Source: Escherichia coli
GTDB lineage: Bacteria; Pseudomonadota; Gammaproteobacteria; Enterobacterales; Enterobacteriaceae
Length of the DNA stretch: 64,000 bases
Strand: one strand, 5' to 3'
Assembly (NCBI RefSeq): GCF_013315695.1
Contig: NZ_CP054353.1
Position 1 is the stretch's first letter; each line of letters starts with the position of its first letter. Below the pieces are notes generated by a model. That model saw only the letters and a program-made list of their open reading frames with translations, did not search any database and was not told where the DNA came from. Positions 55,450 through 55,785 of this stretch are shown here, piece after piece. A program made the position numbers and the translations under genes.

Positions 55450-55785
55450 CAGAAGCGATCCTCTTATGAGATGTAGGGTGACATGGCGATGCTCATTTCG
55501 TAGCCATAATCTAAAAATATCTACATTTCTGAAAAATGCGCACAAATGCGCCATATTGTTTTCTTATTGTGATCAAAAGCAACAAATTGGTAACATTTAA
55601 CGTAGGGTATTAAGGCAAAGTGAGACAGGAAATGAATAACTAAAGCAACAGGTTAGGGGTGGATTACCATCAGAGAACAGATTTTCTGGTCGATAAAAAA
55701 CGGTAAATGGCTTCACTGCAAAATGACCGTTAGTAAACTAAACACATTATCTGCCCCGTTTTAGCGGGGCAGATATAACATTAAA

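Follow-up and report, generated by a model that had tools for sequence, protein, structure and literature searches.

The csiD (glaH) promoter region of an Escherichia coli chromosome: very probably the known CRP-activated, CsiR-repressed promoter with an incidental inverted repeat

The 336-bp intergenic region at 55450-55785 of a 64,000-nucleotide stretch of an Escherichia coli chromosome (contig NZ_CP054353.1; this whole stretch is hereafter the window) carries a small inverted repeat and a CRP-like element, raising the question of which of these belongs to the promoter of csiD. The csiD (glaH) coding sequence spans 54472-55449 on the minus strand (325 aa) and starts with the ATG at 55449-55447. 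Direct reading reveals the Shine-Dalgarno sequence AAGAGGA (minus strand, 55459-55465) 9 nt before this ATG, and its GAGG is kept in orthologues. An extended csiD starting at the ATG at 55554 (54472-55554, 360 aa) was rejected, since its 35 extra codons would cross the promoter and it is the 55449 start that has AAGAGGA. The gene upstream is an intact ygaQ of the alpha-amylase family, which ends at 55786. A 601-bp query around the region found matches in 5382 of 5426 complete genomes, with 100% identity to several E. coli chromosomes; the matched segment is flanked by glaH and, at its opposite end, by an alpha-amylase-family gene. The gene order in an identical strain is gabP-gabT-gabD-lhgO-glaH, all on the minus strand of the window and preceded by an intact ygaQ (750 aa), csiD being the first gene of the glutarate/GABA operon csiD-lhgO-gabDTP. 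Gene coordinates and flanks thus agree with the initial annotation, which had placed a region of this size upstream of a minus-strand csiD.

The upstream border of this region is less uniform. The ygaQ gene (minus strand, 55786-58038) is an intact 750-aa ORF here and in identical strains, whereas K-12 has a pseudogene and several other strains carry frameshifted or interrupted copies. A terminator-like hairpin (minus strand, 55748-55775) with an 11-bp stem (TATCTGCCCCG/CGGGGCAGATA) and a 6-nt loop begins 10 nt past the ygaQ stop codon; it is followed by a poor T tract and differs by one loop base in K-12. With a folding energy of -20.7 kcal/mol (z = -6.5; none of 200 shuffles folds as well), it probably serves to terminate ygaQ transcription or to stabilise the 3' end. 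Comparison of ~55600-55890 with loci L006-L009 and L014 revealed that E. coli lineages lose homology to one another upstream of ~55600-55650; consequently, the conserved promoter ends roughly at -95, and the left neighbours of the locus are lineage-dependent. CFT073/B2-type and O127:H6 strains as well as E. albertii bear unrelated sequence beyond that breakpoint and no adjacent ygaQ. In Klebsiella, the operon is found at another genome location.

For sigma-S selectivity and CRP positioning, the csiD promoter serves as a textbook model. In K-12, it is reportedly sigma-S-dependent, activated by cAMP-CRP and modulated by Lrp and H-NS. The csiD-sense reading of our region contains AATTTGTTGCTTTTGATCACAATAAGAAAACAATATGGCGCATTTGTGCGCATTTTTCAGAAATGTAGATATTTTTAGATTATGGCTACG, and the K-12 intergenic region exhibits 98% mean column identity to the window over 361 alignment columns. 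The gene order ygaQ-csiD-lhgO-gabD-gabT-gabP is the same, as are the CRP 22-mer, the A-tract, both primary CsiR sites, the -10 region, the 5' UTR and the Shine-Dalgarno sequence, all of which are identical, whereas ygaQ is a pseudogene in K-12 and intact in the window. Numbering from the start predicted below, only two differences occur between -80 and +58, -44 T to G and -40 T to A (K-12 to window). Both lie in the left arm of the inverted repeat and create its 5-bp form. A third difference, T to C, is found at -82. The sole stretch differing between the CRP-like element and the ATG reads ATATGTCGCTTTTGTGCGC in K-12 and ATATGGCGCATTTGTGCGC in the window. Comparison with the mapped csiD promoter, which had been proposed as a check, therefore recovers the CRP 22-mer and the CsiR sites in K-12 but not the inverted repeat. 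Identity to the region where the promoter was mapped, together with the presence of the CsiR motif pair, supports the initial assignment as the csiD promoter region. We conclude that the region is very probably the known csiD (glaH) promoter, activated by CRP and repressed by CsiR, and that the inverted repeat in it is incidental; as a promoter, it is an ordinary, already known system.

The CRP-like element is the 22-mer TTTGTTGCTTTTGATCACAATA (minus strand, 55565-55586; centre 55575.5), which includes a TGTGA on the plus strand at 55568-55572. A TGTGA/TCACA-like element near 55567-55586 had been noted before and guessed to be a CRP site; the element exists, and the guess gains support from the evidence that follows. 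Compared with TGTGA-N6-TCACA, 7 of the 10 core positions match, the promoter-proximal half GATCACA being perfect and the distal half GTTGC weak. Scanning with a mismatch-tolerant consensus rather than a curated weight matrix (at most 3 mismatches) returned 3 sites in the region against 1.3 expected, which is near chance on score alone. The CRP reading relies on conservation and fixed spacing, not on the match score. To document both, we fetched 80 loci of other species with a CsiD query, added seven E. coli variants and aligned the resulting 37 distinct promoters, from Escherichia species, Pseudocitrobacter, Citrobacter, Salmonella, Yokenella, Pluralibacter, Shimwellia, Trabulsiella, Leclercia, Enterobacter and Hafnia. 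GATCACA is almost invariant among them, from Escherichia to Hafnia (proximal half: mean majority fraction 0.92, 5 of 10 columns invariant). Moreover, all 36 promoters that extend to ATGTAGATA have it 47-48 nt from ATCACA (Escherichia, Citrobacter, Salmonella, Pluralibacter, Shimwellia, Trabulsiella, Hafnia and others), while the intervening sequence diverges.

Position within the promoter points the same way. According to the summary of Germer 2001 given in PMC2859248, activation of csiD by CRP is optimal when CRP is centred at -68.5, a position that favours the sigma-S over the sigma-70 holoenzyme. Among the CRP-like sites, only that at 55565-55586 (-79 to -58) gives a plausible -10 sequence (TATTTT) and an A start at this distance, an argument that is partly circular because the CRP-site identity of the 22-mer is assumed. 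Judging from its sequence conservation and spacing, the element at 55565-55586 is very probably the csiD CRP activator site. Class I CRP promoters (e.g., lac P1, with CRP at -61.5) likewise have CRP bound upstream on the same helical face and acting via alpha-CTD, with one half-site near consensus as in the csiD 22-mer; they differ in having CRP at -61.5 or -72.5, whereas csiD has it at -68.5. A CRP DNase I footprint at csiD was reportedly published by Marschall 1998.

Since the CRP centre at 55575.5 can be combined with the published -68.5, the transcription start is predicted at the A of ATGGCT (minus strand, 55507, corresponding to NC_000913.3 2,788,927), and the -10 hexamer would be TATTTT (minus strand, 55514-55519; -12 to -7). 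The accessible literature, including genome-wide start-site and CRP tables, yielded no mapped csiD start coordinate. The -10 hexamer has 5 of 6 columns invariant and a mean majority fraction of 0.99 in the 37 promoters, and is followed by TAG in E. coli and by TAA in most other genera. The hexamer at the -35 spacing, TGCGCA, matches at 3 of 6 positions only, and a consensus scan of the region found no -35/-10 pair of the sigma-70 type, which fits a weak, activator-dependent sigma-S promoter. Between the CRP element and the core promoter lies an A-rich tract, AGAAAACAATA, with the core AAACA (minus strand, 55554-55564; -57 to -47). Its mean majority fraction is 0.79; of its 11 columns, 4 do not vary across genera and 10 do not vary within Escherichia. 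Its position makes this tract a candidate for what the title of Germer et al. 2001 calls the "distal UP-element half-site", where alpha-CTD would make contact beside CRP.

The predicted start would leave a 5' UTR of 58 nt, within a range of 51-71 nt among the orthologous promoters. Folding revealed no excess structure in this leader (z = -0.01). Two possible stems, ATGGC/GCCAT and ATGAG/CTCAT, were discarded, since other genera have lost them with no compensating changes. The sole Rfam hit for the region, a sub-threshold one to STnc550 on the antisense strand (15.4 bits versus a gathering score of 48, E = 0.19), was taken as chance, and in five orthologous loci (two from Salmonella, two from Citrobacter and one from E. 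albertii) every Rfam family stayed below its gathering score.

CsiR (GlaR) is the other regulator whose sites can be placed. Hydroxyl-radical footprints of purified CsiR on MG1655 DNA defined two primary sites, TTGTN5TTTT and ATGTN5TTTT, with 6 nt between them, besides two secondary sites; CsiR binds K-12 DNA with a Kd of 10 nM and is released by glutarate (Knorr 2018, PMC6265302). This arrangement occurs exactly once in the region, at 55545-55514 (TTGTGCGCATTTT, tcagaa, ATGTAGATATTTT). Primary site 1, TTGTGCGCATTTT (minus strand, 55533-55545; -38 to -26), covers the -35 region and holds the right arm of the inverted repeat. It is moderately conserved (T-T-R-T-R-C-G-C-R-T-T-T; mean majority fraction 0.82). 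Primary site 2, or core box, ATGTAGATATTTT (minus strand, 55514-55526; -19 to -7), overlaps the -10 hexamer, with 11 of 13 columns invariant, a mean majority fraction of 0.99 and an entropy of 0.05 bits. A third CsiR-like box, ATGGCTACGAAAT, follows 19 nt downstream of site 2 (minus strand, 55495-55507; +1 to +13) and is probably a secondary CsiR site. Positions +1 to +20 have a mean majority fraction of 0.94 in the 37 promoters, and a probable secondary CsiR site, rather than an RNA element, would explain this conservation of the first 13-20 transcribed nucleotides. We favour a DNA site here because the 5' UTR lacks excess structure and any Rfam family. The CsiR ChIP-seq peak was reported at 2786890 in older coordinates; presumably, a genome-version offset of +1977 places it at ~55567. 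The primers MS170 and MS171 of Knorr map to 55584 and 55466, and the range analysed by footprinting, G22-G86, corresponds to 55563-55499 and includes the third box. Primer MS177 (CTTTTGTGCGCATTTT) contains the K-12 allele.

The predicted +1 also opens a 4-codon mini-ORF, ATG GCT ACG AAA TGA (MATK*; minus strand, 55493-55507), so that the mRNA would start with AUG. In three Escherichia lineages the TGA is replaced by TAA, keeping the stop; the third codon positions are devoid of synonymous variation, and the frame continues in some genera. The constraint on this mini-ORF looks to act at the nucleotide level, through the probable third CsiR box ATGGCTACGAAAT, rather than on coding.

CsiR boxes extend well beyond these genera. 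The block AAAATGTAGATATTTTTA--TTATGGCTACGAAATGAGCA (minus strand, 55529-55488) is nearly invariant from E. coli to Hafnia. Its core, AATGTMGAYATTTT, has one occurrence in the 64-kb window. Of the 89 loci examined, 75 have a single copy, in csiD-sense orientation, among them loci of Pseudomonas, Halomonas and Salinicola; in those retrieved by the CsiD query, it sits ~35-100 nt upstream of csiD. This presence of the box AATGTAGAYATTTT upstream of csiD in 75 of 89 loci is the one mildly new observation of our analysis, and the core looks like an ancestral CsiR/GlaR operator that has travelled with the csiD cluster. At PcsiD of P. putida KT2440, CsiR protects two regions, one of which contains the -35 (TAGACA) and -10 (TATTTT) sequences, with glutarate as inducer (Zhang et al. 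2019, PMC6667623). Pseudomonas csiD upstream regions share the same core box, AAAATGTAGA(C/T)ATTTTT, with a second box ~19 nt later, ATGGCGATATTTT or GTAGCGATATTTT, which holds the -10; aligned by eye, the E. coli box ATGGCTACGAAAT is positionally homologous to this second box. The Pseudomonas regions differ from E. coli in the roles of the two boxes: the -35 belongs to the first and the -10 to the second, whereas in E. coli the predicted -10 lies in the first box. In E. coli, site 1 furthermore adds one box upstream, and activation requires CRP and sigma-S, whereas no CRP site has been described in Pseudomonas. Provided that the starts are correctly assigned, polymerase binds one box further upstream in Enterobacterales than it does in Pseudomonas.

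The inverted repeat, GCGCA-TTTG-TGCGC (gcgcatttgtgcgc; minus strand, i.e., csiD sense, 55538-55551; -44 to -31), has 5-bp arms and a 4-nt loop. The initial annotation had presented it as the headline feature of the promoter, near 55530-55545, and had made no mention of CsiR. The string itself exists but lies 6-8 nt away from there, and its standing as a promoter feature does not survive comparison. The 336 bp contain 6 perfect inverted repeats with arms of at least 5 bp and loops of 0-10 nt, three of them nested readings of the ygaQ hairpin, against a mean of 4.3 in mononucleotide shuffles, 29% of which reach 6 or more. The K-12 equivalent, TCGCTTTTGTGCGC, is reduced to CGC/GCG. An exact 40-mer with the repeat is found in 943 of the 5426 complete E. 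coli genomes (~17%), O157:H7 included; the 76-mer haplotype of the window is found in 625 genomes and that of K-12 in 2902, while ~1100 genomes, of B2 type such as CFT073, are 90-95% identical to either 76-mer. B2 strains read TAACTTTTATGCGC at the position of the repeat and carry the allele TAACTTTTA.

Could the repeat nonetheless be a dyad operator, each arm contacted by one monomer of a dimeric regulator, be it CsiR or another? Dyads are the usual targets of GntR-family repressors, the footprinted CsiR site 1 includes the right arm, and both SNPs relative to K-12 extend the dyad. In addition, a repeat is found at the homologous place in Enterobacter sp. 10-1 (L047), where GCGCA-ATTAA-TGCGC is formed with the GCGC core of CsiR site 1; this may be a coincidence or a hint that the GCGC core tolerates or attracts complementary sequence upstream. 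Yet CsiR was footprinted on, and tightly bound to, K-12 DNA without the left arm. The two arms are not conserved together with the promoter: in the 37 promoters the right arm has a mean majority fraction of 0.89, against 0.49 for the left arm, which has none of its 5 columns invariant and, at 1.70 bits, the highest entropy of the promoter. These most variable 5 nt are represented by seven different 5-mers within Escherichia (GCGCA, TCGCT, TAACT, TGAGT, TCACT, TCAAT and ACGCT), in contrast to the almost unvarying ~100 nt around them. Only 3 of the 37 promoters carry a 5-bp repeat there, namely the window and the O157 rows, which represent one haplotype, and, independently, the one from Enterobacter; the best inverted repeat in the other 34 has arms of at most 4 bp at inconsistent positions. 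Finally, CsiR boxes across genera resemble direct repeats ([AT]TG[TG]-N5-TTTT with a 19-bp period). We consequently regard a dyad operator as very unlikely. An intrinsic terminator or attenuator, made of the repeat and the adjoining ATTTTT and acting against ygaQ read-through into the csiD promoter, is exceedingly improbable. The consensus scan does list a csiD-sense hit of 5 pairs (4 G-C), a 4-nt loop and the tail ATTTTTCAGA, because a G+C palindrome here adjoins the T-run of CsiR site 1; but the same scan also calls the plus strand, as any G+C palindrome in A+T-rich DNA scores this way. Folded as RNA, the 5-bp stem reaches only -7.2 kcal/mol (z = -1.5), and 18 of 200 shuffles (9%) fold at least as well. 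Nor is the repeat conserved, being absent from K-12 and B2 strains, and ygaQ is already followed by the far stronger 11-bp hairpin at 55775-55748.

A further alternative concerns the core promoter rather than the repeat. E. coli could use a layout like that of Pseudomonas, with TAGATA (55523-55518) as -35, CGAAAT (55500-55495) as -10 and a start near 55488, which would put the 55586-55565 element at ~-87.5. The near-invariance of the block at 55529-55488 would suit this layout, as would the location of the P. putida -35 and -10 in boxes homologous to E. coli boxes 2 and 3. However, CGAAAT is a poor -10 (3 of 6 matches), CRP is published as centred at -68.5, and 68.5 nt upstream of 55488 the scan shows no other CRP-like site; besides, the T-tract of box 2 reads TATTTT in Enterobacterales versus CATTTT in Pseudomonas, which fits a -10 that has moved. 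We hold such a layout to be highly improbable. The preferred reading is that the inverted repeat is a strain-specific accident and not a functional unit of an otherwise known promoter. Only its right arm matters, since this arm is the N5 spacer of the CsiR site TTGTN5TTTT.

Under this preferred reading, we propose that cAMP-CRP binds 55586-55565, with GATCACA as the strong half-site, and from ~-68.5 would recruit sigma-S RNA polymerase by alpha-CTD contacts, probably aided by the A-tract at 55564-55554, to a weak core promoter that starts at A 55507, has TATTTT (55519-55514) as its -10 and lacks a real -35. The GntR-family protein CsiR/GlaR would bind boxes lying 19 bp apart on one face of the DNA, TTGTGCGCATTTT, ATGTAGATATTTT and probably ATGGCTACGAAAT. 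These boxes span -38 to at least -7, and probably +13, such that bound CsiR would cover the -35, -10 and +1 positions and block polymerase until glutarate releases it and lifts the block. The changes -44 T to G and -40 T to A would fall in the sole gap free of constraint, the 5 nt that separate the A-tract from CsiR site 1, and would happen to complement the GCGC core of that site, leaving the inverted repeat as a by-product.

That both SNPs creating the repeat extend complementarity is slightly suggestive of a non-random pair, and an effect on CsiR or alpha-CTD binding is possible. Together they turn TCGCTTTT into GCGCATTT, an exact copy of the CsiR site 1 core one helical turn upstream. Two more far-reaching readings, which we consider rather doubtful, are that the -44G/-40A allele alters csiD regulation and that an ancient CsiR box pair has been retained while the polymerase site slid upstream. 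In the first, the allele would measurably change CsiR cooperativity or the alpha-CTD/UP contacts and thereby the glutarate or starvation induction of the csiD-gab operon in the lineages carrying it. In the second, the CsiR box pair would be ancient, shared from Pseudomonas and Halomonas to E. coli, and the Enterobacterales polymerase site would have slid ~19 bp upstream; this slide would have come with the CRP site and sigma-S dependence, making the Pseudomonas -35 box the E. coli -10 box. The significance of the locus itself is small, as the promoter is known and its CsiR operator footprinted; what is gained is that the published elements now stand at exact window coordinates and that the eye-catching palindrome is recognised as a lineage-specific by-product, not a regulatory element. 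Conservation of the CsiR core box and its 19-bp periodic partners far beyond Enterobacterales could aid the definition of CsiR/GlaR operators and the design of glutarate biosensors.

Some minor observations concern the CRP site and its surroundings. In some O157:H7 strains (L003, FRIK804), the CRP site reads TTTTTATCACA, with a G to T change just before the half-site (window position 55574). The O127:H6 EPEC locus (L008) has TCGCA for TCACA in the critical half-site (window position 55570), a variant with which CRP might activate the csiD operon less strongly in that lineage. The string ATAAGAAAACAATAT (minus strand, 55553-55567) matches ATA-N9-TAT, the pattern usually quoted for Nac, and overlaps the A-tract between the CRP site and the inverted repeat; such a match could easily arise by chance in A+T-rich DNA. 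Binding of Nac and OmpR upstream of csiD was detected by ChIP-seq (PMC5217608).
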